DNA of 64,000 nt from a virus: IMG/VR virus record IMGVR_UViG_3300010151_000007, positions 36,327 through 100,326 of that record; one strand, given 5' to 3'. This document shows positions 15,694-62,471 of the stretch, piece after piece. Within the stretch, counting starts at the first letter, position 1; the number at the start of each line of letters is the position of its first letter. The position numbers were made by a program, and so were the translations under genes. The notes under the pieces are model-generated. The model was given only the letters and a program-made list of their open reading frames with translations. It was not told the origin of the DNA and searched no databases.

Positions 15694-17490
15694 ATGCCCA
15701 AAAAGAATTTACCAATTAAATATACAAGCCGCGACTTCGACTCTATTCGTCAAGAATTAGAAGAGTTTGCTAAAAGATATTACCCGGATACAATCAAGGA
15801 CTTTTCAGAATCATCTGTTAGTTCAATGATGGTTGATGCGGTTTCATATGTTGGTGATGTGCTTTCTTTTTACATCGACTATCAGGCTAACGAAGGCTTG
15901 ATTGATAGTGCAATAGAATATGACAACATTTTAAGACTTGCTAAACAGATGGGTTATAAGTTCAATGGCAGCACTTCCGCTACTGGTAAAGCTGCCTTTT
16001 TTGCCATTGTACAGGCAAATAGTCTAGGTTTAGGTCCGAAAACAGCAAATTTACCCATCCTAAAGCGAAATAGTGTCTTTGGAGCCGATAGTGGTGGCAC
16101 CTTTATTCTCACTCAAGATGTTAGATTTGACAACCCAAACAACGAAGTTGTGGTTGCGAGGGTTGATACGACCACTGGTTTGCCAACTTCTTACGCGATC
16201 AGAGCCTATGGTGATGTCATTTCGGGTAAATTTGAACAAGAATCCATTATTCTCGGGGCTTTTGAGAGGTTCAGGAGGCTAGAATTGTCGGCAAATGACA
16301 TCGTAGAGGTCATAAGCGTCTTCGATTCTGACGGAAATGAATATTCAGAGGTAGAATATCTCTCACAAGACGTTATTTATCGAGGCGTAATCAACAAAGA
16401 CTCTTCTACAAGAGATGAAGTGCCGAAGATTTTCCAAACAGTCGCAGTTCCGAGAAGGTTTGTAACCGAAAGAGAAGAGAAAAAGACCTTTTTGCAGTTT
16501 GGCTATGGAGACGAAAGTCAAACAACTACTGGCGCATTGGTAGATCCTTCAACAGTTGTGATGCAAATGTACAGTAAAGACTATGTAACCGATACTTCTT
16601 TCGACCCATCTAAGCTTTTGAATACTGATAAGTTTGGTGTCGGCCCCGCCAACACAACTTTGACTGTTAGGTATCGAAGAAATACAAATACGAATGTGAA
16701 TGTTGCCGTCGGCTCGTTGAACAAGGTGGTCAGAGCAAATCTAACCTACAATGATCCTTCCGTTGTTTCTGCTGCAAACAGGGCTGACATTTTATCGTCT
16801 ATAGAGGTTTCAAACGAAGAAGCCATAGTAGGTTCAGTCAGCTTACCAACAATCGAGGAGATAAGAAGGTCTGCTTTGGACAACTTTGCATCCCAAAGCC
16901 GTGCAGTAACTCTGAAAGATTACCAAGCTATCGCCTACAATATGGACAGTCAGTTTGGTAAAGTGAAAAGAGTGAATGTAGTTAGGGATAATGATTCGTT
17001 GAAGAGAAATCTAAACATGTATGTTCTTTCAGAAAACTTTAATGGTCGACTAATTTCTCCAAACGTTAAATTGAAAAACAATCTTAAGCGATGGATTTCT
17101 CAATATAAGATGATCAATGACACTATTGATATTTTGGACGCCAAGATTGTTAATTTTGGGATAGAGTTTGAGATTATTGCACAAGATAGAACGAATCGAT
17201 TCGATGTTTTAGAAAAAGCCTTGTCCGTAGTGAGGGCAAAATACAACATTGCTTACATGATAGGCGAATCATTTTTCTTGACAGATGTGTATAGCGTGTT
17301 GAATAAAATAGATGGGGTCGCCGATGTGGCAAATGTTAAATTGGTTAACAAGAGGGGTGGCTCTTATTCTGAATCTTTCTACAACATCAAACGAAACATG
17401 TCTGGTGATGGAAGGTTTTTGAAAGTGCCGGAAAATGTTGCTTTGGAGATTAAATTTCCGTTCTCCGATATCAAAGGGAGTGTCCGATAA
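15694..17490 (+). CDS. gp6: Baseplate wedge subunit gp6-like (baseplate J family)
   Basis: YTSRDFDSIRQEL, DFSESS, YVGDVLSFYID, LAKQMGY, LQFG.G, QSRAVTLKDY. Confidence 0.9.
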   Translation: MPKKNLPIKYTSRDFDSIRQELEEFAKRYYPDTIKDFSESSVSSMMVDAVSYVGDVLSFYIDYQANEGLIDSAIEYDNILRLAKQMGYKFNGSTSATGKAAFFAIVQANSLGLGPKTANLPILKRNSVFGADSGGTFILTQDVRFDNPNNEVVVARVDTTTGLPTSYAIRAYGDVISGKFEQESIILGAFERFRRLELSANDIVEVISVFDSDGNEYSEVEYLSQDVIYRGVINKDSSTRDEVPKIFQTVAVPRRFVTEREEKKTFLQFGYGDESQTTTGALVDPSTVVMQMYSKDYVTDTSFDPSKLLNTDKFGVGPANTTLTVRYRRNTNTNVNVAVGSLNKVVRANLTYNDPSVVSAANRADILSSIEVSNEEAIVGSVSLPTIEEIRRSALDNFASQSRAVTLKDYQAIAYNMDSQFGKVKRVNVVRDNDSLKRNLNMYVLSENFNGRLISPNVKLKNNLKRWISQYKMINDTIDILDAKIVNFGIEFEIIAQDRTNRFDVLEKALSVVRAKYNIAYMIGESFFLTDVYSVLNKIDGVADVANVKLVNKRGGSYSESFYNIKRNMSGDGRFLKVPENVALEIKFPFSDIKGSVR

Positions 17491-18962
17491 TGTCTATTAA
17501 GAGATATTTTGCTAATGCCGATAATACAATCACCAATGCATTCATGGATGATTTAAGAACACGAGGCACTGGTGCAAACATGGGCCAAGCAGATATATTG
17601 GAAGTGTTTTCCGTTTATGCGCAGGCTTCCACCTCTTCCGTTGAAAAATCAAGAGCCCTGATTAAGTTTCCGGTCTCAACTTTTTCTACTGACCGAACCG
17701 CTGGCACAATCCCTGCATCTGGTAGCGTTAGTTGGTATTTAAAACTTTACAACGCAGAACATGGAAGAACTCTTCCAACCAACGTGGCTTACCTCGTTTC
17801 GTCTATTTCGAGAGACTGGACCGAAGGTACTGGTCTGGACATGGAAGGATACAGTGATTTAGGAAAATCTAATTGGGATAGTGCTTCCGCCGCTGTCTCT
17901 TGGACCACTGCTGGCGGGGACTTTTCCACTTCGGGGACATATACTTTTTCTGCGAGTGCTGGTGATGAGAACATAAATATCGATGTCACTAGCTTGGTAG
18001 AAGCGTGGATGGGTGGCGTCCGCGATAATCACGGTTTTATCGTGAAATTGATTGACACTTTTGAAAACGGAACTCGCTCCTATTACACAAAGAAATTCTT
18101 CGGGAGAGGGACCGAATTCTTTTTCAAGCGCCCAGTTTTGGAGGCTCGTTGGGACTCCTCTGAAAAGGATCAGAGAAACAACTTCTTTTACAGTAGCTCT
18201 CTCGCATCTGCCGCAGAAAACCTAAATACAATATATCTTTACAATTATGTAAGGGGTCGCCTTAGGGATATTCCCGCTATTGGTACCGGTGCTATATACG
18301 TGTCTCTTTATTCGGGCTCGACAGGTCCGACGGGCAGTGCTCTCGCACTCACCGCTGACGGCGCTCACGTAGCCTCTACGACCCCCCGCCGGGCAACAGG
18401 GTCTCATGTGTCGACTGGTATCTACAAGGCCACCATGGCCCTCACAGCGGCTTCTACGCCGTTGACAAAATTGTTTGATGTGTGGCAGAATAAAGCCGGA
18501 ACAGATGATTACAAAACAGGATCTATAGAACCAAAAACATTGGCTTCGTTAGACAGCTACCCAGACGACGAATATGTGTCTGCAATTTCTAACATGAAGA
18601 GTTCTTATCGCTATAATGAGATTCCAGTCTTCCGCGTTCACATACGCAAAAAAGATTGGAGCCCCACTATTTATACAGTAGCCAGTAAACAGGTTATAAA
18701 TTCTGAAACAATAGAAAGTGCTTCATATTCTATACACAGGGTTGTTGATGATTTGGAAGTCGTGCCGTATGGGACAGGGAGTGATATGGAAACTAGAATG
18801 TCTTTCGACGTAAGTGGAAATTATTTCTCTCTTGACATGGAAATGTTGGAGCCCGGTTATATGTATGGTATGACCTTCTCGTACTACAATGATGCTTTGG
18901 CTTCCTGGCTAGAACAGCCCGAAACATTCAAATTTAGAATAGACAAAAAACAGAGTAAGTAA
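17490..18962 (+). CDS. Baseplate/tail structural protein with DNRLRE(CBM96)-like domain
   Basis: DWTEGTG, W..AGGDF, IDVTSLVEAW...NHGFIVK, RPVLE; S/T-rich. Confidence 0.6.
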   Translation: MSIKRYFANADNTITNAFMDDLRTRGTGANMGQADILEVFSVYAQASTSSVEKSRALIKFPVSTFSTDRTAGTIPASGSVSWYLKLYNAEHGRTLPTNVAYLVSSISRDWTEGTGLDMEGYSDLGKSNWDSASAAVSWTTAGGDFSTSGTYTFSASAGDENINIDVTSLVEAWMGGVRDNHGFIVKLIDTFENGTRSYYTKKFFGRGTEFFFKRPVLEARWDSSEKDQRNNFFYSSSLASAAENLNTIYLYNYVRGRLRDIPAIGTGAIYVSLYSGSTGPTGSALALTADGAHVASTTPRRATGSHVSTGIYKATMALTAASTPLTKLFDVWQNKAGTDDYKTGSIEPKTLASLDSYPDDEYVSAISNMKSSYRYNEIPVFRVHIRKKDWSPTIYTVASKQVINSETIESASYSIHRVVDDLEVVPYGTGSDMETRMSFDVSGNYFSLDMEMLEPGYMYGMTFSYYNDALASWLEQPETFKFRIDKKQSK

Positions 18963-21900
18963 TGGGAATTAAAGACTTATTTGATTCTGAAAACACTAAG
19001 ATCTTAACTTCTACTACGTTAGAAGAAGAACACGAAGCAATAGAATCAATTGAAAATATCAAGCAAAAGCGCCTCTCAAAAGAAAGATTCATACCACAGG
19101 TAGATTTTTCTAAGCCAGAGAACTTTGCTCATTACGGATCTGCCGAAAGGTATTATGAGAATTCCATGAAGAGGGTTCTTAACCAATATCCATATGACGG
19201 TTCAGAGGCAGAAATCCAAGGATTCTTAAATAATTCAACCTATGTTGACTTGTATGTTCTCGATAAGAAATATCCAAGAACAAATGGTTATATTAAATTC
19301 TCTGCTACAGGTTGGGGGACTTTAACTGGTTCAGTCATCAAAGATGGCTGGGGTGCCCCCAGTACAACTGGTTCTATCGGGCATGAATACATTGATATTC
19401 GTGGCGGCCCACATACTGCATCCGGTGGCATGATTGGAAAAGATTTGGCCGACGTATTCGCTAAATCAAACATCTATGACACAGATATCTATGACACAGA
19501 AGGCGTTCTTTCCTTAGAACGTGATGGTTCACGCGAATCTAATCTACAATTCAATATTAGTTCTAGTGGTGGTACGTTTGAGTTCTGGTTCAAAAAAGCT
19601 CACTGGAATGCAGGATTAACTTCCAAAGAAGTTGTTTTCGACCTTTGGAATCAAGAACCCATTGGCTCCAGTCAATATGGTCGTGTTTTGTTGTTCCTAT
19701 CGGGTGCCAGTAGCACCACTTCAACAATGCGCTACCAAATCAATTCAGGTTCAACTCTTAGTTCCCTCTTGGCCAGTAGTGGAAGTGTACCTCTCTTGGG
19801 TGGGAAAACGGTTGACGATGATTGGCACCACTTTGCTGTAGTATTCAAACAAAATGGAAGCAATCTAGACTTCCGGGATTATTTAGATGGGACGCCAGAG
19901 GGTGTTACTGATGCATCGATAGTGTTTAATGACATGTCTGGCTCGTGGAAATTACGTCTTGGGGCTTTGCAGACAGCGCCGGAAGGTATAACACCCGACA
20001 AAGGTGAAGCAGACGGAATGTCTGGGTATGGTAAACTTTCTGCCTCATTAGACGAATTTAGATATTGGAAAACTGTTCGAACTGAAAAAGAGATTAATGA
20101 GAACCTTTGGAAACAAGTCCGGGGTGGTACTAACACTGATATTTCGAATACGAATTTGGGCGTATATCTAAAATTTAACGAAGGCATTACAAATATAGGT
20201 TCAATTGATTCGACTGTTTTGGATTATTCTGGTCGCATTTCAAACGGCGTATGGACAGGCTACCCCGGCTCATCAGCAAGAAACACAGGTTCAGCTATGG
20301 TGGAGGCTTCTGTAGCCGCTTCGGAATACTTAGATCCTATTATTTACGAACAGCACCCTGAATACTCTGCCACTGTTACGGCTTTGAAAGACTCTGGAAG
20401 CGTGCATGACAGTCAAAATTCTTCACGTTTCATTGATTTGCTGCCAGCTTGGGTGATCGATCAGGATCTCGACGAGGGTTCGGAACACCTTCACAATTTA
20501 ACACAAATAATGTCATCATATTTTGACACCCTGCATTTGCAAATTGAGTCTCTTTCGAAGATTAAAAATGCTTCTTACATAACTTCAAGTATCAAACCCC
20601 TTCCTTTCGCAGACAGATTACTTGAATCTCAAGGTATGGTGGCACCCGAAATATTTATTGATTCGACCATAACTGAACACTACATGAATCATGATGGTGA
20701 ACGTGAATTTGAACTTGATCTAACGGATATCAAAAACCATATTTACAAGAACATTTACAACAACTTAATCCATCTTTATAAGTCGAAAGGCACCGAAAAG
20801 GCGTATCGTAACCTTTTGAGGTGCTATGGGATCGGTGATGAAATTGTAAAATTCAATACCTATGCGAATAATCAAACATTCAAAATAGAAGATACCCATT
20901 ATCTTTCGAGTTGTCGAAAGAAATATATCGACTTTAGTTCGCCGAACAAGTATGGCGCTGTTGTGATTAATGCGACAGCTAGTTCAATTGGTGGTCACCT
21001 CTCTGTCCCGACTCACTATAATGTTGATATGGCGGTTACGGATGAGGTGGAAGTAATCTTCCCGAACAACCCAGATACCTTTGAAAACAATAGGGTGTTC
21101 AAGACTTTCACAACTGCCTCGATCTTTGGTTACCATATCGTATCTGGTGGGCCAGCAGCCTCTATAATGGAATGGACCGCTTCTGCAAAAGACAGTAACT
21201 ATGAACTATACGCGGTTCGCCCCTTGCCCAATTCCAGTGATGCTTATTTCTGGTTGACAGATAGAAACAGAACTTTCAACTTAACAAGTAGTTTGTATAC
21301 TGACGTATATTCCGGTGAAAAATGGAACTTCGCAATCAGACAGCACAAAGAGCAGCACCCAATTGGCACACAGATTTCTGGTGCCGTTCTAGGTCATATC
21401 TGGGAGTTTTTGGGGTTCAATGTAGATGGTGGGATAGTAAAGAACCAATTCAACTTCTCTGCCTCTCTTAGCTCGGCTCACAAAGGGCTTGCCACTAAGG
21501 GTCGGAAATATTATGCAGGAGCCAATAGGACAAACTTTACAGGAACTTTACAAACACAGACAGACGTTAAGATTTCGTCAGTTCGCAGTTGGCACTCATA
21601 TCTTTCAAACGATGTTTTGATTGCGCATGCTAAGGATCCAAATAATTTCGGCACTGGAAGGCCGACCAGAAACACTCAATTTTTTAATAGTTCTATTACA
21701 TCTATACTGCCTGAATATGCAACTTTGAGATTTGCTTGGGAGATGAATGAGTTAACCACATCGGATAACAATGGTGAATTTAGAATAACTGATTTCTCTT
21801 CTGGTTCGGGTGATTTTATCGCCAGTTTGGATGCCGGGTATACCAATACGTTTGGACACCACGATGCTCACGGCTATCTGTTTCCAGCTTCGAGTACCAC

Positions 21901-24900
21901 TGTTGTTTCAAACGAATATATAAACGCAGCAAAGCAGAAACTTCCAGAAGTTATCGATAGTAGTGATATGGTAAATGTCCTAACACAAGACGACGAAATC
22001 TTCACAAGAGATCCTGCTGTTTCTCAACATGTTTTTGCGTTTGAGAAGAGTATGTATGGAGTCGTCTCACAGGAAATTCTAAACATATTTGCTGGCGTCA
22101 CTCACATGAATGATTTGATTGGCGAGGTGACCAACAAATACCGTTCAGGCTATAAAGACATGAGGTTGTTGAGGGAGCTTTTCTTTGAGAAGGTTCGTAA
22201 TACCCCTGATTTAGACAACTTTATGGATTACTATCGTTGGATCGATTCATCGATAATGAAGTTCTTGAAACAATTGACGCCGGGCTCCGCTATTCTATCG
22301 GACGATATCAGGAACATTGTTGAAAGCCACATCCTAGAAAGAAACAAATATGATCACAAATACCCATTTTTAGACTTCCGGGGAAATACACGCTGGGCAG
22401 AAACAACTATCGAAGGCTCTGTCAAGGGCCTTGGAGAATTAGAATACAATTGGAAGTATGGTCATGCTCCGGTTGACAATAACGATGCCGATAATGCATT
22501 GTGGTGGAAGACTAGAGCCAGAGCGAATGATACTGTCCTCACCTCTGGTGATACAACAAAAGACGTTCAGCGCCAAAGGCTGCGCGCTGCAATCAATAAT
22601 GATAGTTTTGCTTCCCCTGTTCGTTTAAGGGAGGTAACAAACTCGAAGTATCGTTCTGTAGTCAACTCCTTAAGAGACTTCAGAACTGTTATGAAGCCAG
22701 ACATTATTCGAACAAAAACTATTAAAGGCGGAATCAACTTCGAAAACAATAAGAAGTTTAGCGTCTTTAAGAACTTGATAATGAATTATCCAACAGGTCT
22801 AAGTGATTCGGGTTATGAACTTGACATTGTAAAAAAAGCGGATAAGAATATCAATGACATTGAAGATCCTTCTAAACTGGTTCGTAAGAATTGGGGCATT
22901 GAAAGCTACTTCGACAAGGTTACGACCTTTGCGTCCGGTGGCTCCCAATTCTTCTTCGACAACGCGGAAAAGGTTATCCCCGGCAACCTAATAAGCTCAT
23001 CTGTTGTTTCTGGTTACAACGCTAGTAACAATAATTCATATAACCGTTCGGCTTTGAATTCAACCGCATTAACGAATATCCACTTCGATGCTTATGGCAC
23101 AGAATTGGAGACTCCAATGCAGGGCCCATTCTCTGACGCTCACGTCGGTGGCTTACAACACCGTCATGTTAAAATGAACAGAGGTTCGGATACACTATAT
23201 ACCCGCCCAGAAGCCTGGAGGGTGCGTTCTTTTCCGACTGATTCGATGTTGCGATACAAAAATCCTTCCGTTAATCCCTTGAATGACGTTGAAAACCCTG
23301 CATACCCGATTGCAATCTACTATCGCGATGAAACTGCAAAAAGACCGGTAGTAATCAAGAACGTTAAATACACAACCGGCTCCGCTATCCTTGGAAACTA
23401 TCGCAGAGAAATGGAAATAGTTCCGATCACGGGTCGAAAGAGTCATAACAAGTCGTTCATTCAAAACGAAGGGTTCTCCGTGACTGGTGTATCTTCCTCT
23501 TTTGTAACCGATCTGGTAGATTACACAAAACCGTTAAGAACAACAAACTCCGGAACAACGTATCCTGGCAAGAATAATTCACATGCCCAGCATGTTATAG
23601 TCCAAAGATTTTCCGCTCCAGGCTCTCCAGAAACAATGGGAGATCATCAGGGCGGCAGCGGCTTAGATGTTGAGGCTGGCGAATATTCACCATATAATAG
23701 CTTAAATTACAGAAATTTATCTGTTCGGCAGCCGCTAAACAGAAGTCTTCTTGTACACCACACAAGGCAGTTTGGTTTCTATAGCGGTTCTGCGGTTACA
23801 TCAGCAAATTATGCTGGTACCGGCTCATACCACAAGCAGCATAGGAACAGAGGTTTGAGGATGGAATATTCTCAAGCAAGATCCCCTGTCGATGCGGCGG
23901 TTATCACAGCTTCGGTGTTTGACAATGCGTTCATCTCAAGCCTGATTCCAAGATCTGATTTACATTATGCTTGGGTAACAGCTTCCTATGAAAGCACAAA
24001 GCAAGTAGGGTTCGCTCCACCAACTGGGTTTGTTTCAACTTCTGCTGGCCGCGTGAATGCTATAGCCTTTAGTTCCGGTAGTGAAATAGGTGCTGGTAAG
24101 AACGCTAGTGGTCAATTGAAATATGGTTTCTATGGCCCACCCGCCCCAAACATTACTACTGATTTTGTATTTAATGATTATGTTGGCTTGAATACGAACA
24201 TTAGAGAACCAATCAATACTAGCTCATATGATTTTGTTGGGTTCACCGCTAGTGGTGGCGAGATTGATCCTTCCACTGGCAGATATAGATATCTCAACGA
24301 GGTTTACATTGATGGTGTCACTGGACAAGCCTCCAACCCTTATACTTTGAATGGCCTGCTTCACCATCGCAACGGACCTTATCAGCACGCCAATTTTAAG
24401 ACCATTGCTCACCAAACACACCCGATTGTTAGAAGGCAGAGGAAAGATAATGTGATAACCCACACTATCGAAGGTGGTGTAGAAAGAATCATTGCAGGTT
24501 CAACAACAAAAGATACAAACGGAAAAACAAAGGTATTTATCGAGCCAGCGATAAATAACAAATATAAGCCTATTAAGATCGATATGGTCGTTGTGACTGG
24601 CGAAGATCAAAATAACGACACGAAAACATCTAACATCGTCGCTTCAGTTTCGGTTGTTGGGAAAAACCTGTTCTTTGAAAACCCAGAACTTAACAACTTG
24701 ATTGGTTTGCGAGCAGATCAAGAGACGCCATACGACAAAATCAAGAAGATGTATCTAGATGGTGCCCTAAAGGATCCCAACAGCCCAATCGTAGATATCA
24801 AAAGACTGATCTATACAGAGACGGTTTATCCTGCTGGAAAGAATGCTCATCTAAAGAAGACTCGCGGTCGTACATCGTTTAATAACAACTTCTGGAGATC

Positions 24901-27900
24901 GACAAGAGAAGATAGGAATGTGACTGGTAGTTATTCAACAATTTCGGGACAATATTCCGCTAGTTTCTGGCCACTAGATGCAGCAACTTCATATACCCTC
25001 CTTGGTAACAATGCTTTTGCTTATACAAACTCTGCCGGTGCCTGGAGCCTTTACAATCCGGAATCCCAATATAACAGGATGGGGGAGTTGATGGGTCAAT
25101 GGTATTACGATCTTAGGTATTTGGTAAACAACATAGGGACACCTGATTTCTCAAGAATGAAGGCGCTACCGATGTATTACAGGCCCCATAAGATTTATTT
25201 CAAAAATACGCTGGCGGCTCCGTATAATAAAAGGTATGACGAAATGTCAACTACCGGAGCATTTCAAGATCTTGGTGGTGCCCTTGGTGGTGGTCAAGCA
25301 GTTTGGGAAACTGGGCGATTGGCCGGAAAATTTGTTAATGGAGAGTTTGTTTACACCGAAAGGTACCCTTTTCACGACACATATGACGACTATTCGCTAG
25401 ATATTAAGAACAAAGCAAAGGGTTACTCGGTCCTCCCAGAATTCAGAATTAGTGAGCATATCAATATGTTCTATAAAGATGGTGGGGAGAGCACGCTGCA
25501 AGAGAATTCGAAAGAATATTCAATTTACGGAATCCCAACTGCCAGTTCCAATCCACAGAATTCATCTGAAAACGATTTCTTTGAAATCTACTCAAATTCA
25601 GATTTCATGAAATACTTTGAATTAGTCAAAAACGACAACAAGGGTTTGTTGCAGCCTGCAACAATTTCCTTAAAATGTAAAGGTATAAAGAAATTCCTGC
25701 CATATGAAGGTTTTTACCCGGTTCTTCGTACTTTGGATTTAGCAACTCAATTCTCAAAATCTTATGAGCCTTATATCAAATCAAGAGGGGCTGACTCACA
25801 ATACGACAACGCCAGATTAAGAACGGTCTTTGCTCCAATGTTTGCTCCCGGAATTCTTTACAATACAATCAAGTCTGGCCTCGCTGTTGATTTCCCTGTC
25901 ATGACAGGCTCAATTAGAGCTTCGCACACACACAAGGTGGCCGTCGGCGCGGGAGATCTGGAAAGCATCCACACGACCATTGGTTCCAACTCAAGATACA
26001 AATCAGCACTTCCAGCCTCTTCCAACCATGTGGATGGGTGGGATTATCGTATTCCATTTGAAGCAATCATAAATCCTGAAAACTTCATTTCAAATAAATG
26101 GATTGCCGACTCTGAAAAGTTTAACTCAAATCAGGACATCACTGCTTCTCTAGGTCTCGGCGGTGATAGTCTTTACACAATGATGGCTAACAATTTCTTT
26201 GCGGAAACAATCGATTTCTTCTTAGAGGAGCAAACTGTAACGAAGATCGTTTCGAAACCTGAAAGCGAATTTAAGTCTGTAACCCCTGGCCAGCCATATG
26301 GCATGAGGGTCAAGGTTTGGAGGACTATGGATGGTCCGAAGCCTGTAACCGGAAGTTGGGGGCAATTCCCAATTCCACAGAATAGTGGCTCGGCAATAAA
26401 AGAATCCTTCGTGATGTATTCTCGCCCAAGTGCTTTTGGACCCCCTGTGTCTGCTACCGGCTCCAATAACGCCGGGGCACCCCGAAAATGGTCGAATTGG
26501 CCAAGTGGGACATTCGGGTGTGAAAATGGTGTTTACGCCTCTCATACCCCTCCATATTATGATGGCGAATCGTGGATTGATATTATCTATTATCCATGGA
26601 AAACTACCGCCGGTACAGATGCTAAATATAACTCGGACGTTAATAAGCCTTACAAGCCCTCGCTAGATGAAATTTTGAATTTCATCAACCCTACAGCTAG
26701 CATCGATACCACTGCCGGCTTCCCTGGTGGGACATATGTCCGCAAATGGAGATATGATAGGGAAGTAATCGACTCATCCACTCCTTTCTATAATGATATG
26801 GAAGCTTATCATGGCCCCATGGCCGGTGCTTTTGCCAACAGGTGGTCCATGCAAGCTGACGCATCGTTCGTTATCGATGAAAGAGAGAAAGATAAGTGGT
26901 CGATTAAGTCGCGCTTTGAAACCCCTATGCTTAATTTTGCTTATGTAACCTCTAGTGATGGAACTAAGACCACAAGGGAACAGGCGGGCGATGGTCGCGG
27001 CGCAGAAGCTTCATCCGGTATAGGAATGTGGCATCAGTTCGGGCGCATACCAAAAATTGATGAAGGTGTTTATCTTCAAATAACTGATATTCCCGAAAAC
27101 TGGATTACAAACCACCCATCTGCAACGATTCTGTTTGATCCGCAAGGGGATTACACCGGAATTAATATTCCATTCTTATCTTCCAGCACAGACAGTTTGA
27201 GATATAGGGTGCCAATTGGCGTTTCTGGTGATATGTCAAATTCGCCTCTTTCGCTTGTTGATATCTGTGGTTTCTCCACAACGGCTGAAAAGATTGGTAA
27301 GATCGCAGATTCCAAGACAGTGAGTGAGGCAGTTGTAGCAATTCCGTTTATCGAAATTGATGCAACCAGAAAGTTCTTCAATATCAATTTGGAGAAAAGT
27401 GGCGAGTCTGTTCAAGAACAGATAGAGAAAATGAAGAAGTTCGTTATTCCGCCGCGCCTAGACTTTGTTCACAATAAAGACCTTGAAGCAATTGCCATGT
27501 ATATCTTTGAATTCAACCATGTATTCGATAAAGACGACCTTTCTCACATGTGGCAAAATGTATTACCAGAAGCCGGAATGAAGATGGAAGAAGTAAGTTC
27601 TATTATTTCTCATGACTTGAGGAAGGGCGAGATATTAGAAAAAATGCCTGAAGAATTGAAGTGGATGGTGTTTAAGGTCAAGCAGCGAGCGAAGACTGAT
27701 TATTGGAAACAGACCAACAGATCAAATAGTGAAAATATTCCTTTTTATTCTTACAACTGGCCTTATGACTTTTTCTCTTTGATTGAGATGGTTCAGATAG
27801 ATTCGGAAGTGGAGATGAAGAAAAAGGAAGATATTAGCTCTGGCTTGGATTCCCTACCAACTCGAAACTTGAGAGAAGAACTTTTCAACGATGATTTGTT

Positions 27901-28117: not shown

Positions 28118-29118
28118 CATTTTTTGATGACAAACAAGAGGTGTTGAATATTGAGTTGACACCATATGGGCGTAAGCTGCTGGCTCAAGGGAAGTTAAAC
28201 CCCACATACTATGCGTTTTTCGATCATGATGTTATTTACGATCCCAATTACATAGAATCAGGATCTTCAGAATATCAGTATGAAGCGGAAAATAGAATTC
28301 AAGATCGCACACCAAGAAAGAAAGTTCAACGCTCCAAGAGTGCCCGAACTGACCAAGTTACTAAGGATTTAGACTTGTATGAACACAGTTTCAATCTAGA
28401 AAATGCTTTGGGAACAAGTGCTCACAATTCTCAAAAAGCTCCACGTTTGGAATTAACCTTTCTTCAAGGCGAGGTTGATGGTACTATAACAAAGTTTATG
28501 TCAACATCTTCAGGCCCATCCTTCTCTTATCATCAAGATGTCAAGATAACGCAAATACCGACAGATATTGAAATACAAACTGCAATAGCTCACGAAGATA
28601 GATTAGAGAAAGACATCAAATTCAAACCAGATTTTGAACTTAGCACAAACAATGTACACTCGGACGGTTCGACGGTTGTGATCAGCCCGGAGCAAATATT
28701 TCTTTTACTTGATGAAGAGAATACAATTGTTTTGAATGAAAATTTTGATATTGAAGTTTTTGAAGTGCTGGACTTAACTGGCTCTTTTGGCGAAGAGGTG
28801 TTGAAACCTTTGTCTTTTGTCCGTCCGGTAGAATATGTTGTTGACGGTAAATTAATCGATAGGGGTGAAGCTTTTGCGGAAGCCGGTCGCTCCCAAGATG
28901 GCAGCCTAAATGTTACTAACGAATATGTTGAATATTATTTCAATGTTAACACTGACGTATTCGACGAGATATCAGATTCGGAGATATGTCAAGCTGCATT
29001 TGAACTGAAAAAGAGGAATATTCTTGTTGATCTTGAAGTAGATTGTCCAGATTTGATAGAAGTGCCAGACTTGAATATCTATGAAAGTGACGCAGTTGAA
29101 ATAGAAGATTGTCCTTGA
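28114..29118 (+). CDS. Baseplate/tail structural protein (N-terminal LT..GR..LA domain)
   Basis: IELTPYGRKLLAQG...YAFFDHDVIY is paralogous to the start of 34585-35505. Confidence 0.6.
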   Translation: MTFFDDKQEVLNIELTPYGRKLLAQGKLNPTYYAFFDHDVIYDPNYIESGSSEYQYEAENRIQDRTPRKKVQRSKSARTDQVTKDLDLYEHSFNLENALGTSAHNSQKAPRLELTFLQGEVDGTITKFMSTSSGPSFSYHQDVKITQIPTDIEIQTAIAHEDRLEKDIKFKPDFELSTNNVHSDGSTVVISPEQIFLLLDEENTIVLNENFDIEVFEVLDLTGSFGEEVLKPLSFVRPVEYVVDGKLIDRGEAFAEAGRSQDGSLNVTNEYVEYYFNVNTDVFDEISDSEICQAAFELKKRNILVDLEVDCPDLIEVPDLNIYESDAVEIEDCP

Positions 29119-29119
29119 G

Positions 29120-29127
29120 ACTAATTA
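29120..29127 (+). promoter_or_regulatory. Candidate late promoter ACTAATTA
   Basis: Intergenic, 15 nt before ATG 29143. Confidence 0.7.
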
Positions 29128-29142
29128 AGAAAGAGAACTAAA

Positions 29143-40772: not shown

Positions 40773-40967
40773 ATGAAAGAGATCAAGGAGGGGGCACTCT
40801 GCACGGTTAGGTTCGTGGAGGGTGGTCTCTATACAGAAGAAATAGGCGTCGTAATGGCTGAATTGAAGAGGGTTAGACCTTTCGATGAAAGTCGATACGA
40901 TGTTTTCGTGGTTAGGCTAAAGAAAAATATGAAGTTCCCACGTCGTTATTTACATATGATGGAGTAA
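40773..40967 (+). CDS. Small hypothetical protein (SH3/KOW-like beta fold possible)
   Basis: IKEGALCTVRF...IGVVM...YDVFV; coupled to the next gene. Confidence 0.6.
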   Translation: MKEIKEGALCTVRFVEGGLYTEEIGVVMAELKRVRPFDESRYDVFVVRLKKNMKFPRRYLHMME

Positions 40968-52807: not shown

Positions 52808-53212
52808 ATGGGTGACAACGATTTTAAACACTACAATGTCGGCCTTCATAACGTCGGTTCTTATCAAACTTCTGGTTGGCCATGGATCACTGGTTCAACC
52901 GGCCATGCGGCTAATTCAGAAATAAAGTATGAATTCCCAAGTGTGGCAAAAGCAGTGACTGTGATCAACAAATCTAATCAAAGCATTCAGATTCACTTTG
53001 CTCCCGCCTCCGCTGGTAATCCGATTACAGGTTTGCACTACGTCTCACTCGACAGCGATGAAGATAAGATCGTATTGAATGTCAAATGCAAAGAGATTTA
53101 TATCACGGCTCCAAACACTGGTTCATCTAGAAGTTATGAAATCATTGCAGAAATGACAAACATCAACGCAGACCGAATGTACATTCTTACTGGGTCTGGT
53201 GTGACAGATTGA
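52808..53212 (+). CDS. Small beta-rich virion protein (possible capsid decoration)
   Basis: Own late motif; three TGS motifs; beta-strand pattern. Confidence 0.55.
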   Translation: MGDNDFKHYNVGLHNVGSYQTSGWPWITGSTGHAANSEIKYEFPSVAKAVTVINKSNQSIQIHFAPASAGNPITGLHYVSLDSDEDKIVLNVKCKEIYITAPNTGSSRSYEIIAEMTNINADRMYILTGSGVTD

Positions 53213-54837: not shown

Positions 54838-56568
54838 ATGAAACTTATGTCTATACTAGGAAAATTAACAGAAGGTATTGAACGTCGGGATCTCCAAAAA
54901 GAAGGTGCAAAATTGCTTAACAAGTGGGAACGCACCGGGCTTTTGGAAGGAATGAAAGGCGATCATGCTCGTGCCTCGATGGCACAGTTGCTTGAAAATC
55001 AGGCAAAACAGTTGTTGCAGGAAACTTCCTCAATGGCTGCGGGAGACGTGGAAGGCTTTGCCTCTGTAGCGTTCCCATTGGTGCGCCGTGTATTCGGTGG
55101 CCTATTGGCAAACGACCTTGTGTCGGTTCAGCCTATGAGTCTCCCATCGGGACTTATCTTCTTCCTCGACTTTACTGTCTCGGATGAGACAGGTACTCGT
55201 CTTTCGTATGAAAGCGGTGACTCGTTGTACGGCGGCGGTGTTGTGGCCAAGCAGATCACTGGTGGTGTTGACCTGACAGGCGAAAACGCAGAAGATTCAG
55301 GTTATAACTTAAATAACGGTTATGCCTCACCAACTGGCTCTGGCACAGTGGCTATTACAGCCCACGACTCTGGTACATTCGGTGTTAACACTGAAGGTTC
55401 AGCGAATGGTTGGCAAACAATCACTGCTGACACAGCAAACAAGTTGATGCGTTGGGATCCGGACTTGAATTCTGGTTCAACTAAAGTTGCTATCGGTAAG
55501 GTTCAGCTTTCAAGCCTAGCCCAGTTCGATAGTGCAAACTTGGTCAACTTGGTTGTCACTCTAACTGGTACCCCCGCTGGAGCGACACAGGTTCGCCGTT
55601 TGACCCAGTTCAGTGGTACTACCAAGACACACGCTTTGGTGTTCTTTAAGGCTGATGGTGCTACGCTTACCCAGCTTTCTGGTGCTGTCACGGGCTCCAA
55701 GACTATGAATTGGGCAGAAGTCGATGACTTCACTGCTGGCGGTGCAACCGGCGCTGTTGTTGGTACCACGGTTTGGGGCTTGGAAAACGAAGCCAACATT
55801 CCAGAGATCGATATCAAGGTTGATTCAGTCTCGGTCACCACACAGACCAAAAAGCTCAAAGCTAAGTGGACACCTGAACTTGGTCAGGATTTGAACGCAT
55901 ACCATAACTTGGATGCAGAGGTTGAGTTGACATCTATTCTTTCCGAGCAGATTGCACTTGAAATCGACCGCGAAATCCTTGAAGACCTCTTGAAGTTAGC
56001 CCAGGCTGGAACTTTTTATTGGTCACGCTCCCCAGGCATGTTCCTGAACAGAACAACTGGCGCAGAGATTGGTGCTTCTACCGCTGCTCCAGACTTCACA
56101 GGAACCGTATCCGAATGGTATGAGACTCTCATTGAAACAATTAACGATGTGTCTGCACAGATTCATCGTAAGACCTTGAGAGGCGGTGCTAACTTCGTGG
56201 TATGTGGTCCAGAAGTTGCCAATATTCTTGAATTCACTGCTGGATTCCGCGCAAGCGTGACCGCAGATGACGATAGAGGGACCATTGGTGCCGTCAACGT
56301 CGGCTCGCTTTCGAAGAAATTCGAAGTCTATGTTGATCCATACTTCCCGCGTAACGTGATTCTGGTCGGGCGCAAGGGTGGTAGCTTCCTCGAAAGTGGA
56401 TATGTCTACGCTCCGTATGTGCCACTTCAGGTTACACCAACAATCTTCGGTGTTGAAGACTTCGTGCCTCGCAAGGGTGTCATGACTCGCTACGCCAAGA
56501 AGATGGTTCGTCCTGATATGTATGGTGTGGTTGTTGTCCGTGGCTTGCTTGGTGAGACCGGAAGCTGA
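54838..56568 (+). CDS. gp23: Major capsid protein (gp23-like)
   Basis: LLENQ, PLVRR, VSVQPM..PSGLIF, KLKAKWTPELGQDL.AYH.LDAE.EL, EIDREI, YAPYVPL, PRKGVMTRY. Confidence 0.97.
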   Translation: MKLMSILGKLTEGIERRDLQKEGAKLLNKWERTGLLEGMKGDHARASMAQLLENQAKQLLQETSSMAAGDVEGFASVAFPLVRRVFGGLLANDLVSVQPMSLPSGLIFFLDFTVSDETGTRLSYESGDSLYGGGVVAKQITGGVDLTGENAEDSGYNLNNGYASPTGSGTVAITAHDSGTFGVNTEGSANGWQTITADTANKLMRWDPDLNSGSTKVAIGKVQLSSLAQFDSANLVNLVVTLTGTPAGATQVRRLTQFSGTTKTHALVFFKADGATLTQLSGAVTGSKTMNWAEVDDFTAGGATGAVVGTTVWGLENEANIPEIDIKVDSVSVTTQTKKLKAKWTPELGQDLNAYHNLDAEVELTSILSEQIALEIDREILEDLLKLAQAGTFYWSRSPGMFLNRTTGAEIGASTAAPDFTGTVSEWYETLIETINDVSAQIHRKTLRGGANFVVCGPEVANILEFTAGFRASVTADDDRGTIGAVNVGSLSKKFEVYVDPYFPRNVILVGRKGGSFLESGYVYAPYVPLQVTPTIFGVEDFVPRKGVMTRYAKKMVRPDMYGVVVVRGLLGETGS

Positions 56569-56673: not shown

Positions 56674-57999
56674 ATGCCAGCAAGACCAGTATTAGATCCA
56701 ATACAACAATCAAGCCTTTCCATACTCCCCGAAACGGGGTCTACAGCCACGACTGGTGCCGGTGCTGGTAATACCTCCAACTATCCGTTTGGAATGTATG
56801 TAGACACCAACCACGCCCTCTATGACGCGAATTTCATATCAGGTGCGGCTGACCAAGTCACATACGTGTATCGCAAGCTTGGTGGTGACGTCCTTGACAT
56901 TGAATTAAAGCAAGAAAGCGTATATTCTTCTTACGAAGAAGCTGTTTTAGAGTATTCATACCTAATCAACCTTCATCAAAGCAAGAATGCACTTTCTGAT
57001 TTTCTTGGTCATGCGACTGGTACATTTGATCAAGATGGGCAGTTGAAAACAACTTTAAGCTCATCGAATGTTAATCTAAGGTATCCTAAATTTGAATTCC
57101 GTTCCGCAAAAAGGGTTGCTCTTGGTGTTGCCACCGAAGCCCAGGTTGGTGGTACACAGACATTCTATTCAGCTTCATTCCTTTTGGTTGCTGGACAGCA
57201 AGATTATAACTTACAAACAGTCGTTTCAAGTAATGCTGCTGGCACCGAACCGGCAACTGGTAACGCTCCAAAATATGCTAGCATTATTAATTCAAATGCT
57301 GATAAAAGAATTACGATTAGGAAAGTCTTTTTTAAAACTCCTCAATCAATATGGAGGTTTTATGGCTACTATGGTGGCTTAAATGTTGTTGGAAACTTAA
57401 ATCATTATGGTCAATTCGCTGATGACACAACCTTTGAGATTATTCCGGCTTGGCACAATAAGTTGCAAGCTATGGCTTTCAAAGATCACTTGTATACGAG
57501 ATTATCTCATTATTCATATGAATTGATTAACAACAACTTAAGGATCTACCCATATCCGCAACAGAGCTTGGTTAACTATATTTGGTTCACCTTCACAGTG
57601 GATGGCGCGATTGCAGCATGGGATGACGAAGATGGTCAGGACACTGGTATAAAAGGGATTAATAATCTCAACACTTTGCCGTTTGACAACCTCCCTTATG
57701 AGAATATCAATGGTATCGGTAAACAATGGATTCGCCGCTTTGCTTTGTCACTGGCCAAAGAAACACTCGGACAAATCCGAAGCAAGTTCTCCCCACTCCC
57801 GATTCCAGGTGATAACATCACTTTGAACGGCGAAGCCCTCTTGACTCAAGCAAAAGAGGAACAAACTGCTTTGCGGGACGAACTGAAAGAGATTCTTGAT
57901 CAGCTTACTTACCCCGCTCTTATCGAGAAGGACTTAGAGAAAGTTAATAACACTGCGAAAATCTTTGAAGAAGTTCCGCTTCCAATTTACCAAGGGTGA
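56674..57999 (+). CDS. gp13: Neck protein (gp13-like)
   Basis: RKLGG.VLDIEL, WIRRFALSLAKETLGQIRSKF...PG..ITLNG..L...A.EE. Confidence 0.85.
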   Translation: MPARPVLDPIQQSSLSILPETGSTATTGAGAGNTSNYPFGMYVDTNHALYDANFISGAADQVTYVYRKLGGDVLDIELKQESVYSSYEEAVLEYSYLINLHQSKNALSDFLGHATGTFDQDGQLKTTLSSSNVNLRYPKFEFRSAKRVALGVATEAQVGGTQTFYSASFLLVAGQQDYNLQTVVSSNAAGTEPATGNAPKYASIINSNADKRITIRKVFFKTPQSIWRFYGYYGGLNVVGNLNHYGQFADDTTFEIIPAWHNKLQAMAFKDHLYTRLSHYSYELINNNLRIYPYPQQSLVNYIWFTFTVDGAIAAWDDEDGQDTGIKGINNLNTLPFDNLPYENINGIGKQWIRRFALSLAKETLGQIRSKFSPLPIPGDNITLNGEALLTQAKEEQTALRDELKEILDQLTYPALIEKDLEKVNNTAKIFEEVPLPIYQG

Positions 58000-58004
58000 A
58001 CTGA

Positions 58005-59459: not shown

Positions 59460-59467
59460 ACTACTTA
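59460..59467 (+). promoter_or_regulatory. Candidate late promoter ACTACTTA
   Basis: Intergenic, 40 nt before sheath ATG 59508. Confidence 0.7.
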
Positions 59468-59507
59468 ATGTATGAGAAAGTAGTAATACGCAAGGAGTAT
59501 TTTTCGA

Positions 59508-62471
59508 ATGGCTGATAGCAGAAAGTTTAAATTTGTATCTCCGGGGATTTTCATTGATGAAATCGATCAGTCTCAAGTCCCTGTTGCTCCTGAAAATGTT
59601 GGTCCGGTAATCATCGGTCGTGCAGAGCGTGGCCCAAGTATGGTTCCGGTTAAGATCAATTCATTTTCAGAGTTTGTAGAGACGTTTGGTAACCCAATCG
59701 CAGGAAAGGGCGGCAGCGATGACGTATGGCGTGATGGTAACTTCTCTGCTCCTACTTATGGTGTCTATGCTGCCCAAGCTTATTTGAAAGCTGGTGTTGG
59801 CCCCGTGACATTCGTTCGCTTATTGGGCACCGACCACCCAGACGCTACCGCAGACGGCGCAGGCGAAGCTGGTTGGAAAACTGCCGCAACCCCTAACAAG
59901 CTTGTTGCCTCCAATGGTGGTGCTTACGGTCTATTCGTGTGGCCTTCAAGTTCAAATGGCGGTGAAATAGGTTCGCACGCCAACCCCACTGGTTCATTGG
60001 CTGCTGTATGGTATCTGGATACTGGCTCCAAGATCGAGTTAACCGGAACTGTCGACATCGACAAAACCAAGAATTCGCAGTCTGCCGGTCAATTTTATTA
60101 TTCAGACGCAAGCAAGACCTTCACTGCTGTTATTACCAAAGGCTCCGCTGTTGAAGAGAGGGTAACATTCTCTTTGGACATCAGTGCAGACAACTACATC
60201 CGTAATGTCTTCAACACTAACCCACAACTTGTGAACAGTACAATCGAAGACACAAACTTGACAAAGAGTTACTGGCTTGGCGAAACATACGAACGCACAA
60301 CTAGTGATACCATCGGTTCATCTACTGTTCAATTCGGCGCACTCGCTGCCGTAATGAGTGGTTCTGCCGCAAACCACAAAAAGAAGATGGGTTACCGTGA
60401 TGCTCACAGTGGTTGGTTCTTCTCGCAAGACGTTTCAACAGACAACTCAAGTTATAAACATGATGATATGACCAAGCTGTTCAAGTTTGTCGGTATCAAC
60501 GGTTATGGTGAATGGCTCAACAAGAATGTCAAAATTTCTGTCTCAAACGTTCGTGCATCAAACAACACTGCCGATCCATACAGCAAATTCGATATATTGA
60601 TTCGCCGCGCATCAGACTCTGACTTGAAGCCAATCATACTTGAAAGGTATTCAGGTCTTACCTTGAACCCTCTCTCACAAGATTACATTGCCACAAGGAT
60701 TGGTGATATGAGTATCGAGTGGGATAATGATGAGAATCGTTATCGTGAATTTGGCGACTTCTTGAACCGCTCTCGTTATGTTCGCGTTGTCATGAACGAC
60801 GTCGCTATCGCCCCAGCATTGGCTCCCTTTGGCGTGTATGGTCCTCCGAGATGTAAGAGTTATACCTTTGCGTCTGGCAATGCCAACATGTTCGATATCG
60901 TTGACACTCTGTCTTCCGCTACTTGGAATCAAATTTACTCTTTCACCACTACAACAGGCTCTATCCCTGGAACTGCAATTGGTCACACTAGCAATGATTT
61001 GTTCGAAGTGACTGGTAATTCCCTTGTCGGCTTCACTGGTTCGGTAAGATTCCCTGCCTCCCCTACAAGAGCCTCGGCTAGTAATGGCGGGACTACTCAC
61101 CGTAATGCGTACTTCGGTACCGATGCTGGTAGAAGTTCTGCAAATACCGATTTCGATCCTGGTTATGGCGAATACTTGAGACCCTTCAGTGATGATATCA
61201 TTTCAGACAACTCTTGGTCTGATACCTTCGGATTGGGAAGCCTTCCGAATGCTATGGAATATGGTTGGGTGTTCTCTTTGGATGATTTGAGAGTCGTTAC
61301 TGGTTCGAGCTACAGCTTCGCTACCGGACCTGCCAACAACATCAATGATGTTTACTGGATTTCGGGCTCCCGTGTTGCTGGTAGTGCATTCAACTGTTCG
61401 GGGACATGGACAGGTGCCGCATCGTGGCAAAACATCCTTAAGGCCGATTCAACAAGATTCACCTCACCTATGTGGGGTGGTTTTGATGCCTTGGACATTA
61501 AAGAAAGAGAACCTTTCCGCGATTCATTGCTGAATGGTTCCGAAAGCGAAACAGGTAATTATGCTTACTTCACTGTGAAGCGCGCTATCAACACTGTGGC
61601 CGATCCAGAGGTTGTCGAAACAAACATGATTTCAATGCCAGGGCTTACAAATGAAAGCCTTACAAAGCATTTGATTGATGTTTGTGAGGCTCGTGGCGAT
61701 GCTATAGGGGTTATCGACGCTAAGGGCGGGTTCACTCCTCGACACGATTCTAGCGATACCGCATCGAGCCGTAAGGGTGATTTAAAGACCGTTCTAGACA
61801 ACATGGACGCCCGTAATCTCAACAATAGTTATGGTGCAACCTACTATCCGTGGGTTAAGATTCGCGATGACATTAACGGCGTGTTCTTGAACACCCCTCC
61901 TTCTGTCGTTGCAATTGGCACCTTGGCACACACTGAAAAGGTTTCTGATGTATGGTTCGCTCCTGCCGGATTCCAGAGAGGTGGGTTGTCGAATGGTAAC
62001 GCTGGGTTGACGGTCGTTGGTATCGAAACCAAATTGACTTCAAAGAACCGTGATGATCTTTATGAAAGAAACATTAACCCAATCGCAAGCTTCCCGGCCC
62101 AAGGAATTGTGGTCTTCGGCCAAAAGACCCTTCAGGCTACCCCTTCTGCATTGGACAGAATCAATGTCCGCAGAATGCTTATTCACGTAAAGAGGGGGAT
62201 CTCTAGAATCGCAACTACCACACTGTTCTCACCTAATGTTCAAGCTACTTGGACAGGGTTCAAGACAAACGCTGACAACTTCCTTCAGGATGTAAAGTCT
62301 GGGTTTGGTATTGATGACTTCCGCGTTATCTTGGATGAAACAACTACAACACCAGATTTGGTGGACAGGAACATCATCTACGCTAAGGTATTCGTGAAGC
62401 CTACAAAGGCTGCCGAATTCATTGCGATTGACTTTATCATCACTCGCTCGGGTGCTTCGTTTGAAGACTGA
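59508..62471 (+). CDS. gp18: Tail sheath protein (gp18-like) with S/T/G-rich insertions
   Basis: FVSPGIFIDEIDQS, G.A.RGP, YYPWV, PPS, WFAPAG..RG, LYE..INPI, FGQKTLQ..SALDRINVRR, KPTKAAEFI. Confidence 0.97.
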   Translation: MADSRKFKFVSPGIFIDEIDQSQVPVAPENVGPVIIGRAERGPSMVPVKINSFSEFVETFGNPIAGKGGSDDVWRDGNFSAPTYGVYAAQAYLKAGVGPVTFVRLLGTDHPDATADGAGEAGWKTAATPNKLVASNGGAYGLFVWPSSSNGGEIGSHANPTGSLAAVWYLDTGSKIELTGTVDIDKTKNSQSAGQFYYSDASKTFTAVITKGSAVEERVTFSLDISADNYIRNVFNTNPQLVNSTIEDTNLTKSYWLGETYERTTSDTIGSSTVQFGALAAVMSGSAANHKKKMGYRDAHSGWFFSQDVSTDNSSYKHDDMTKLFKFVGINGYGEWLNKNVKISVSNVRASNNTADPYSKFDILIRRASDSDLKPIILERYSGLTLNPLSQDYIATRIGDMSIEWDNDENRYREFGDFLNRSRYVRVVMNDVAIAPALAPFGVYGPPRCKSYTFASGNANMFDIVDTLSSATWNQIYSFTTTTGSIPGTAIGHTSNDLFEVTGNSLVGFTGSVRFPASPTRASASNGGTTHRNAYFGTDAGRSSANTDFDPGYGEYLRPFSDDIISDNSWSDTFGLGSLPNAMEYGWVFSLDDLRVVTGSSYSFATGPANNINDVYWISGSRVAGSAFNCSGTWTGAASWQNILKADSTRFTSPMWGGFDALDIKEREPFRDSLLNGSESETGNYAYFTVKRAINTVADPEVVETNMISMPGLTNESLTKHLIDVCEARGDAIGVIDAKGGFTPRHDSSDTASSRKGDLKTVLDNMDARNLNNSYGATYYPWVKIRDDINGVFLNTPPSVVAIGTLAHTEKVSDVWFAPAGFQRGGLSNGNAGLTVVGIETKLTSKNRDDLYERNINPIASFPAQGIVVFGQKTLQATPSALDRINVRRMLIHVKRGISRIATTTLFSPNVQATWTGFKTNADNFLQDVKSGFGIDDFRVILDETTTTPDLVDRNIIYAKVFVKPTKAAEFIAIDFIITRSGASFED

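Follow-up and report, generated by a model that had tools for sequence, protein, structure and literature searches.

We analysed a 64,000-nucleotide window (positions 36,327 to 100,326 of the IMG/VR record IMGVR_UViG_3300010151_000007), which is the final 64 kb of the 100,326-bp contig of an uncultured T4-like myovirus (CheckV completeness about 55%) and in which all real genes lie on the + strand. We show that the tripeptide [ST][GAS]S occurs three to four times more often than expected in outer virion proteins of this phage, that the excess is shared by its relatives and lies in outer parts, namely the capsid insertion, the outer sheath, the neck and the peripheral baseplate, and that the tail tube and the inner baseplate wedge lack the tripeptide or are depleted in it. 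This excess goes with a conserved pair of family 4 glycosyltransferase genes (GT4-1 and GT4-2) located upstream of the window, and not with the neighbouring sialic-acid-like genes. The sequence pattern indicates that the tripeptide is probably a sugar-attachment tag, and the chances seem to us evenly balanced that it is the O-glycosylation sequon of the GT4 pair, with a strain-specific elaboration of the glycan.

Firstly, we assessed the excess in the proteins of the window by comparing each of them with 1000 composition-preserving shuffles. The initial annotation had noticed the tripeptide by hand counts in six proteins, and these counts were exact: 11 against 3.5 expected in the open reading frame (ORF) starting at 17490 (z 4.2), 38 against 11.1 in the 18962 ORF (z 8.0), 8 against 2.4 in the 35521 ORF, 11 against 3.3 in the 36627 ORF, 3 against 0.57 in the 52808 ORF and 10 against 4.6 in the sheath (59508). 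It had also placed the motif in the capsid insertion and the neck, where we found 5 against 1.6 (capsid, 54838) and 3 against 0.9 (neck, 56674), and had described it as nearly absent from the 2057-, 1047- and 735-amino-acid (aa) proteins, which contain none against 3.1, 1.4 and 1.1 expected. The 28114 ORF has 3 against 0.5, and a 505-aa protein upstream of the window on the same contig has 13 sites. An unbiased scan of all tripeptides identified TGS as the most over-represented one in the window proteins (33 against 6.9, z about 9.5). The excess depends on the order of the residues, since SGT (14 against 6.8) and TGT (7 against 5.5) depart less from expectation, and [ST][GA]S occurs 78 times against 30 expected as compared with 31 against 24 for [ST][GA]T; N[GA]S (12 against 12.3) and D[GA]S are at chance. 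Composition alone is thus excluded as the cause by the shuffles and by the contrast between forward and reverse order. The sites are dispersed and without recurrent flanks, and the Ser at position 3 is encoded by both codon families (AGY in 34%, against 29% overall), which rules out a DNA repeat or any other DNA-level motif and upholds the earlier description of isolated sites with varied codons. At least ten non-homologous proteins or domains carry the excess, and a shared mobile domain was rejected, since the one similarity that BLAST detected among the motif-rich proteins, between the 35521 and 36627 ORFs, is weak and spans 111 residues. The general O-glycosylation sequon of Bacteroidota, D-[ST]-[AILVMT], is not enriched in two complete relatives, G1 (147 against 150) and G2 (161 against 165), and a family pattern like that of [ST][GAS]S was not seen for it. 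A 366-aa protein encoded at 53717-54817, upstream of the capsid gene in the scaffold position, contains 6 copies of this sequon against 1.0 expected, including four DSL, and explains part of the DSL excess of this contig, an excess that the relatives do not have.

Secondly, we followed the motif through about 80 uncultured relatives at 44-70% identity, tripeptide totals being taken over 160 related loci. In these loci the expectation is 272 for both TGS and SGT, of which 945 and 423 copies, respectively, are observed, and the enrichment falls in the same protein families as in the window. The ratio of observed to expected motifs (O/E) is 4.0 in the 490-aa family (n=79; TGS 8.3-fold; 17 conserved motif columns), 3.6 in the 3051-aa family (TGS 5.4-fold), 4.1 in the 334-aa family (TGS 9 against 0.5), 3.8 in the 134-aa family (TGS 24 against 2.0, with the conserved sites P-[WFY]-[IV]-TGS and L-TGSG), 3.3 in the neck family, where one site is a motif in 65 of 65 sequences, and 2.4 in each of the capsid and sheath families. 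Most orthologues and paralogues of the 361-aa protein in the cultured phages immuto and Mel-JY01 are enriched too. At conserved columns six variants of the motif interchange (for example SSS 15, TAS 12, TSS 11, SAS 8 and TGS 2), and TGT, SGT, TGA and SGN occur as rarer leaks. Depletion across the clade affects the tail tube (4 against 21.6, O/E 0.19), the gp25-like (4 against 14.4, 0.28) and gp6-like (55 against 122.8, 0.45) wedge proteins and the 8144 family (0.32); in the window itself the gp25-like and the 598-aa gp6-like proteins have no motif against 0.2 and 1.7 expected. The same partition is found inside single proteins. Across 80 capsid homologues the excess is restricted to the enlarged insertion (residues 118-320; 343 against 126, O/E 2.7), a domain that stands in place of the T4 gp23 insertion, and the HK97-type core parts have 0 against 11.4 and 21 against 36.7 (O/E 0-0.57). 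Among 38 aligned sheath sequences it lies in the non-core middle domains (residues 71-769; 372 against 141, O/E 2.6), with 0 against 6.7 at the N-terminus and 14 against 19.4 (O/E 0.72) in the gp18-like C-terminal core. We take the gp23 insertion and the gp18 non-core domains to face outward in the T4 structures. The orthologues of immuto and Mel-JY01 display the same split between inner and outer parts. The predicted fold of the 134-aa protein (predicted local distance difference test, pLDDT, 76) has only weak jelly-roll matches, and of its three sites the first lies within a strand, another in a loop and the last in a flexible tail.

Thirdly, we compared the genomes that contain the GT4 pair with five control phages. 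[ST][GAS]S and TGS are found 29 times against 33.7 expected and 0 against 5.4, respectively, in the structural region of T4, 72 against 61.4 and 6 against 10.3 in S-CBS4, 54 against 43.8 and 7 against 7.3 in S-EIVl, and 159 against 108 and 20 against 19.6 in the HTVC008M genome; in the P-TIM40 genome the broad class is not specifically enriched and TGS is at 20 against 25.6. The broad-class count of P-TIM40 is inflated by a 365-aa low-complexity Ser-rich protein (5090-6187, - strand) that has 32 [ST][GAS]S against 4.9 and no TGS. In the controls the O/E of the broad class is 0.9-1.5, rising to 2.4 in the large HTVC008M fibre proteins (24 against 9.9). Because the broad class is mildly raised in control fibre proteins, the ordered T-x-S form is the specific signal. 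Genome-wide, the O/E of TGS is 2.3-3.9 in six GT4-pair genomes (2.3-2.8 in Mel-JY01, immuto and RM378) versus 0-1.0 in the five controls. The ratio of T[GAS]S to S[GAS]T, which is free of composition effects, is 1.16-2.19 in all six pair genomes and 0.5-0.77 in all five controls (pooled, 525:370 versus 206:275; odds ratio 1.9, p = 3e-8).

The GT4 pair lies 5.7-8.2 kb upstream of the window, outside the view of the initial annotation. Both complete relatives have a conserved copy of it (58-60% and 43% identity), whereas the Pse/NeuB genes are not conserved in them; nearly everything between the pair and the next conserved genes differs in these genomes. Ten further loci have the same arrangement, from PhoH to a PD-(D/E)XK nuclease, GT4-1 and GT4-2, then 4-17 kb of mostly unrelated genes before conserved genes resume. 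GT4-1 is present in 14 of 21 contigs of the clade, including all four that are at least 86% complete. Only 11 of 50,697 cultured phage records contain a GT4-1 homologue: seven coincide exactly with the set of phages nearest by capsid (Mel-JY01, four immuto records, LR756508 and RM378), and the other four (two S-CBS4 records, S-EIVl and Mae-JY09) are distant matches to a single GT4. The order PD-(D/E)XK or nuclease, GT, GT recurs in Mel-JY01, immuto and RM378. The possibility that any GT4 is sufficient was rejected, since S-CBS4 and S-EIVl each have a single distant GT4 and no TGS excess. S-CBS4, an unrelated cyanophage, encodes a GT4, a galactosyltransferase and an S-adenosylmethionine methyltransferase directly after the portal, in its structural module (L239:2872-5238; 9916-12282). 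Both proteins of the pair belong to Pfam Glycos_transf_1 (GT4-1 40.7 bits, GT4-2 26.7 bits, cut-off 26.4) and have an invariant E-x7-E in the C-terminal domain (E285/E293 in 8 GT4-1 sequences, E287/E295 in 8 GT4-2 sequences); both are predicted to be soluble and catalytically intact. A modelled GT4-1/GT4-2 complex reached an ipSAE of 0.87 (best control 0.00), a mark attained by 58 of the 80 solved complexes and 2 of the 110 mismatched pairs used for calibration, which is rough because our own alignments were used. Runs agreed in at least 98% of contacts, and the partner pLDDT was at least 90. This model supports a GT4-1/GT4-2 heterodimer. In some relatives (L185:555-2627, L233:11212-13221, L234:8996-10993) an additional domain fused to the C-terminus brings GT4-2 to about 665-690 aa. 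The GT4-1 homologue of Mel-JY01 (83441-84932; L187:8001-9492) is annotated as two adjacent coding sequences of 573 and 909 bp, which may reflect a frameshift, an error in sequencing or a true split of the gene.

An ordered, lineage-specific tripeptide on many unrelated outer virion proteins is most economically explained by a lineage-specific reader, and the soluble GT4 heterodimer is the only candidate reader that we found. We propose that [ST]-[GAS]-S, strongest as T-G-S and S-G-S, would serve as acceptor tag in a cytoplasmic system of protein O-glycosylation encoded by the phage itself, with the heterodimer of the two soluble GT4 enzymes as its conserved core. Before or during virion assembly, the pair would add the first sugar or sugars to the Ser/Thr of any exposed tag, whether in the insertion domain of the capsid, the outer domains of the sheath, the neck or peripheral baseplate or fibre proteins. 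The sugars particular to each strain, and the transferases that extend the glycan, would come from the hypervariable island that follows the pair. We infer, first, a protein substrate for the pair, second, that this substrate is glycosylated at the tag and, third, that the glycan so started is lengthened by the island. The initial annotation had likewise proposed a sequon on exposed parts of the virion; order dependence, an effect at the peptide level, topology, clade-wide occurrence and absence from outgroups all fit that part of its proposal, and the nonulosonate chemistry attached to it is not supported.

Several observations weigh against our proposal. Sequence does not reveal which acceptor a GT4 enzyme uses, and the literature that we searched contains no chemical or proteomic report of a glycan on virions of this phage or of its cultured relatives. 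The phages with the GT4 pair are one deep clade by capsid similarity, so that pair and motif may occur together through one event in evolution; we found no member of the clade that has naturally lost the pair, the 7 of 21 contigs without it being 31-60% complete fragments. The capsid and sheath signals are weak in RM378 and in the head region of LR756508, and the head regions of LR756508 (with GT4-1) and LR756511 (without it) have too few S/T-rich proteins to bear on the question. Two large proteins of the same module in the window (1067 aa and 735 aa) are unenriched, and we saw no sign that non-target proteins avoid the tag across the proteome, the proteins with zero counts fitting a Poisson expectation. 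Most of the excess sits at positionally conserved sites, and in the 490-aa and neck families all of it does (O/E 0.9-1.0 at other positions), which fits conserved structural turns equally. Finally, 2 of the 11 sites of the 490-aa protein lie within strands of its predicted fold (pLDDT 70; best match the carbohydrate-binding module, CBM, 8wab, TMt 0.71).

The main alternative is that the tripeptide is an unmodified turn or strand-edge motif of clade-specific outer beta-sandwich domains, maintained by purifying selection, and that the GT4 pair and the island act elsewhere, on a host surface glycan or a small molecule. The positional conservation and the lack of avoidance just described speak for it, as do the preference for hydrophobic or aromatic residues, with charge lacking, at -2, -1 and +1, as at strand-turn-strand junctions, the fact that 8 of 11 motifs in the model of the 490-aa protein fall in loops or at the ends of strands, and the mild broad-class excess in the large HTVC008M fibre proteins. 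Generic turns would, however, be expected in the homologues or beta-rich fibres of T4, P-TIM40 and HTVC008M, where TGS is at or below expectation and SGT is more frequent than TGS, and good turn formers such as N-G-S and D-G-S should then be enriched, which they are not. Moreover, ten or more non-homologous proteins that differ in fold have the same ordered class, and the capsid, sheath and 134-aa families, alone among the families, retain an excess at variable positions (O/E 1.5-2.1). We regard a purely structural motif as unlikely, while giving it more weight than any other alternative. The tripeptide might also be the site of another modification or recognition event, such as phosphorylation, acylation, glycosylation by a host transferase, or binding of a chaperone or assembly factor, given that sequence does not identify the modifying chemistry and that Ser/Thr-centred motifs serve many enzymes. 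Cyanobacteria, Flavobacterium and Rhodothermus are all among the hosts of the cultured carriers, so that one host enzyme common to them is unlikely, and a search beside the module, which was not exhaustive, found no other conserved candidate enzyme; we consider this explanation improbable.

The initial annotation had attributed the motif to a Maf-like enzyme of the NeuB/NeuA cluster, thought to put a nonulosonate directly on the Ser/Thr of the tripeptide, and the contig does encode a set of suitable genes. The sugar island starts at contig position 30881, directly after the GT4 pair. Upstream of the window it contains a PseB-like, a PseC-like and a weak MptE-like protein, a NeuB with a SAF domain and a metallo-beta-lactamase-fold protein; inside the window follow a PseH-like GNAT, a Cst-like transferase, a second NeuB, a cupin, a cytidine monophosphate (CMP)-cytidylyltransferase, a PhyH dioxygenase and a 112-aa protein. 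The matches to Pse enzymes (PseB 1e-79; PseC 8e-42; PseH 1.8e-25, 89.8 against a cut-off of 93.1; NeuB/PseI twice; PseF 5e-6) all fall under the equivalog cut-offs, and PseG was not recognised among the NCBIfam matches of the island. Taken together, they suggest that the island encodes a near-complete, pseudaminic-acid-like nonulosonate pathway. Its two NeuB-family synthases (L002:14168-15178 and window 1796-2644) are 29% identical, one with and one without a SAF domain, and occur alongside two weak MptE-like proteins, which suggests two nonulosonate branches in one island. No protein with membrane segments was found in the islands of three genomes, and therefore no flippase, polymerase or oligosaccharyltransferase; the pathway would be soluble.

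The evidence largely refutes this direct transfer of a nonulosonate as a general explanation of the motif, and we hold it to be very improbable. NeuB is absent from the relatives G002 (100% complete), G003 and G004 (86-87%) and from the complete genome of Mel-JY01, and the 322-aa enzyme encoded at 704-1672 is absent from five of five long relatives; the relatives without NeuB or this enzyme retain the full enrichment (15 against 3.7, 37 against 9.1 and 48 against 12.2). The motif thus shows no correlation with neuB/transferase clusters across relatives, contrary to what a link with these genes predicts. The island genes are mostly missing from relatives between conserved flanks, and the island as found in this contig occurs in none of the ten further loci. 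Nor does the 704-1672 enzyme behave as the Maf-like Ser/Thr transferase that had been suggested: it scores 6.8e-5 and 23.2 bits against the Pfam family MptE-like/MAF_flag10 (PF01973), under the cut-off of 34.6, and its profile matches solved Cst chains (2p2v 3.9e-7; 1ro7 1.9e-6; 2x61 1-2e-6; profile positions 119-269) and no solved Maf chain. One of its 13 homologues matches Pfam CST-I (PF06002). Maf proteins are about twice its size. The second MptE-like protein (L002:13410-14171; 20.2 bits against the same cut-off) is not supported as its paralogue (hhalign probability 2%). The characterised acceptors of Cst-type sialyltransferases are glycans and not Ser/Thr. If active in this system, the 322-aa enzyme is more likely, from its profile, to cap a glycan than to modify Ser/Thr, and the glycan of this phage may be nonulosonate-capped through the Pse-like pathway and the Cst-like transferase. 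Glycosylation of phage DNA by the GT4 pair and the island, as in T-even phages, would suit the arms race with restriction systems that a conserved pair beside a fast-changing sugar island evokes, and GT4-1 has a weak match to the Pfam family 'GT4 in conflict systems', but no ThyA-type hydroxymethylase was found in the two complete relatives or in RM378, so that the usual hydroxymethyl-pyrimidine acceptor is missing, and the motif would be left unexplained, which makes this reading scarcely credible.

Features of the window and of the upstream part of the contig. Positions are those of the window unless marked otherwise.
Feature	Position	Strand	Basis or remark
GT4-1	contig 28135-29388		upstream of window; overlaps GT4-2
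GT4-2	contig 29367-30593		upstream of window; pair at L002:8135-10593
Window part of the variable sugar island	193..5066	+	Pfam and NCBIfam matches
322-aa GT42 (Cst-I/Cst-II)-like CMP-nonulosonate transferase candidate	704..1672	+	profile match
gp25-like (15263) and gp6-like (15694) inner baseplate wedge proteins	15263..17490	+	motif-free; PHROG baseplate wedge matches
490-aa peripheral baseplate-region protein	17490..18962	+	motif-rich; beta-sandwich (CBM-like, FN3/Ig-like) modules
3051-aa giant structural protein	18962..28117	+	motif-rich
334-aa structural-module protein	28114..29118	+	motif-rich
361-aa protein	35521..36606	+	motif-rich; family expanded in Mel-JY01 and immuto
439-aa protein	36627..37946	+	motif-rich; weak C-terminal similarity to the 361-aa protein (35521)
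Large terminase	46142 (start)		
Portal	47734 (start)		
134-aa small jelly-roll protein, candidate capsid accessory	52808..53212	+	two conserved TGS sites
Major capsid protein, gp23-like	54838..56568	+	PHROG major head protein 2e-72; core aligns to T4 gp23
Neck/head-tail adaptor, gp13-like, with extra N-terminal region	56674..57999	+	motif-rich; PHROG head-tail adaptor Ad2 8.6e-11
Tail sheath, gp18-like	59508..62471	+	residues 770-986 align to gp18 442-652
Tail tube	62523..63083	+	motif-free; PHROG tail tube 1.8e-19

The nearest cultured phage is the Microcystis phage Mel-JY01 (sheath 32%, capsid 37% identity), and IMG/VR holds hundreds of uncultured relatives with a capsid identity of 60-70%; searches of cultured phages with the 704-1672 enzyme and the 490-aa protein gave no match. 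The 2057-aa protein (9090-15263) has no BLAST match in G1 and G2, where an unrelated protein of similar size, in G2 with three hydrophobic segments, occupies the slot between conserved neighbours on both sides; it looks like a replaceable giant protein, probably internal. The 1047-aa protein (40967-44110) aligns over its full length with a 1066-aa Mel-JY01 protein and in P-TIM40 matches only a separate gp46-like protein, consistent with a fused Mre11-Rad50-type nuclease of the clade. A paralogue of the tail tube, 27% identical, is encoded directly downstream of it at 63418-63897.

To our knowledge, virion glycosylation encoded by phages has so far been documented for a few mycobacteriophages. 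We advance only tentatively, as somewhat less probable than the sequon itself, the wider picture of an abundant aquatic T4-like clade, with cyanobacteria and Bacteroidota among its hosts, that coats its virions by means of a tripeptide sequon and a GT4 heterodimer, with the island as a 'serotype' locus and, in the present phage, a nonulosonate cap. If it is true, virion glycosylation would be predictable from sequence in common aquatic T4-like phages, through a short sequon, a dedicated transferase pair and a fast-evolving glycan locus; the many lipopolysaccharide-like sugar genes of marine phages would be explained as genes for their own coat; and questions would arise about adsorption, aggregation, resistance to grazing or proteases and recognition by host defences. 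The three cultured carriers (Flavobacterium phage immuto, Microcystis phage Mel-JY01 and Rhodothermus phage RM378) make the idea directly testable. If the motif is purely structural, it is a warning that sequon-like statistics can arise without modification.

Among known systems, the 704-1672 enzyme resembles Cst-I/Cst-II of Campylobacter (GT42) in its profile and in its position beside NeuB and a CMP-transferase, an arrangement that makes sense for transfer from a CMP-nonulosonate. The Cst enzymes characterised so far lengthen a glycan, the lipooligosaccharide, and not a protein. The 704-1672 gene is specific to the present phage and does not travel with the motif; unlike the Maf transferases that add nonulosonates to flagellin, its product falls outside the Maf family. 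The GT4 pair recalls GtfA-GtfB, two adjacent GT-B genes whose products form an O-GlcNAc transferase complex that modifies, in the cytoplasm, Ser in the S-A-S/S-x-S repeats of Gram-positive serine-rich-repeat adhesins, and that serves general O-glycosylation in Lactobacillus plantarum (GtfA/B). The phage genes are likewise adjacent, of GT-B fold and predicted to form a complex; they match no GtfA/GtfB model of NCBIfam and no GtfA chain of the PDB at E <= 0.01. GtfB is non-catalytic, whereas both phage enzymes keep E-x7-E, so that neither partner appears inactive, and the proposed phage targets are folded virion proteins with isolated tags instead of long repeats. Chloroviruses encode the soluble enzymes that glycosylate their capsid protein, and the best solved match of both phage GT4s is the chlorovirus enzyme B736L of PBCV NY-2A (PDB 3OY2; GT4-1 2e-8, GT4-2 6e-6), mostly over the generic nucleotide-sugar-binding half; we know of no acceptor established for B736L. 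The glycans of the chlorovirus protein Vp54 are N-linked at atypical sites, unlike the O-linked sugars proposed here on a Ser/Thr tripeptide. A further parallel comes from the mycobacteriophages Che8 and Corndog, for which Freeman et al., in Cell Host Microbe in 2023, reportedly describe virion glycosylation by phage-encoded glycosyltransferases, the glycans reportedly being on C-terminal regions of siphovirus capsid and tail-tube subunits and the transferase genes near the structural genes. Soluble transferases encoded by the phage would, in both cases, decorate its own virion proteins in the cytoplasm. The system proposed here differs in that a short dispersed tripeptide is found on many outer proteins of T4-like myoviruses, and in that the transferase pair neighbours a hypervariable sugar island at a distance from the structural module.

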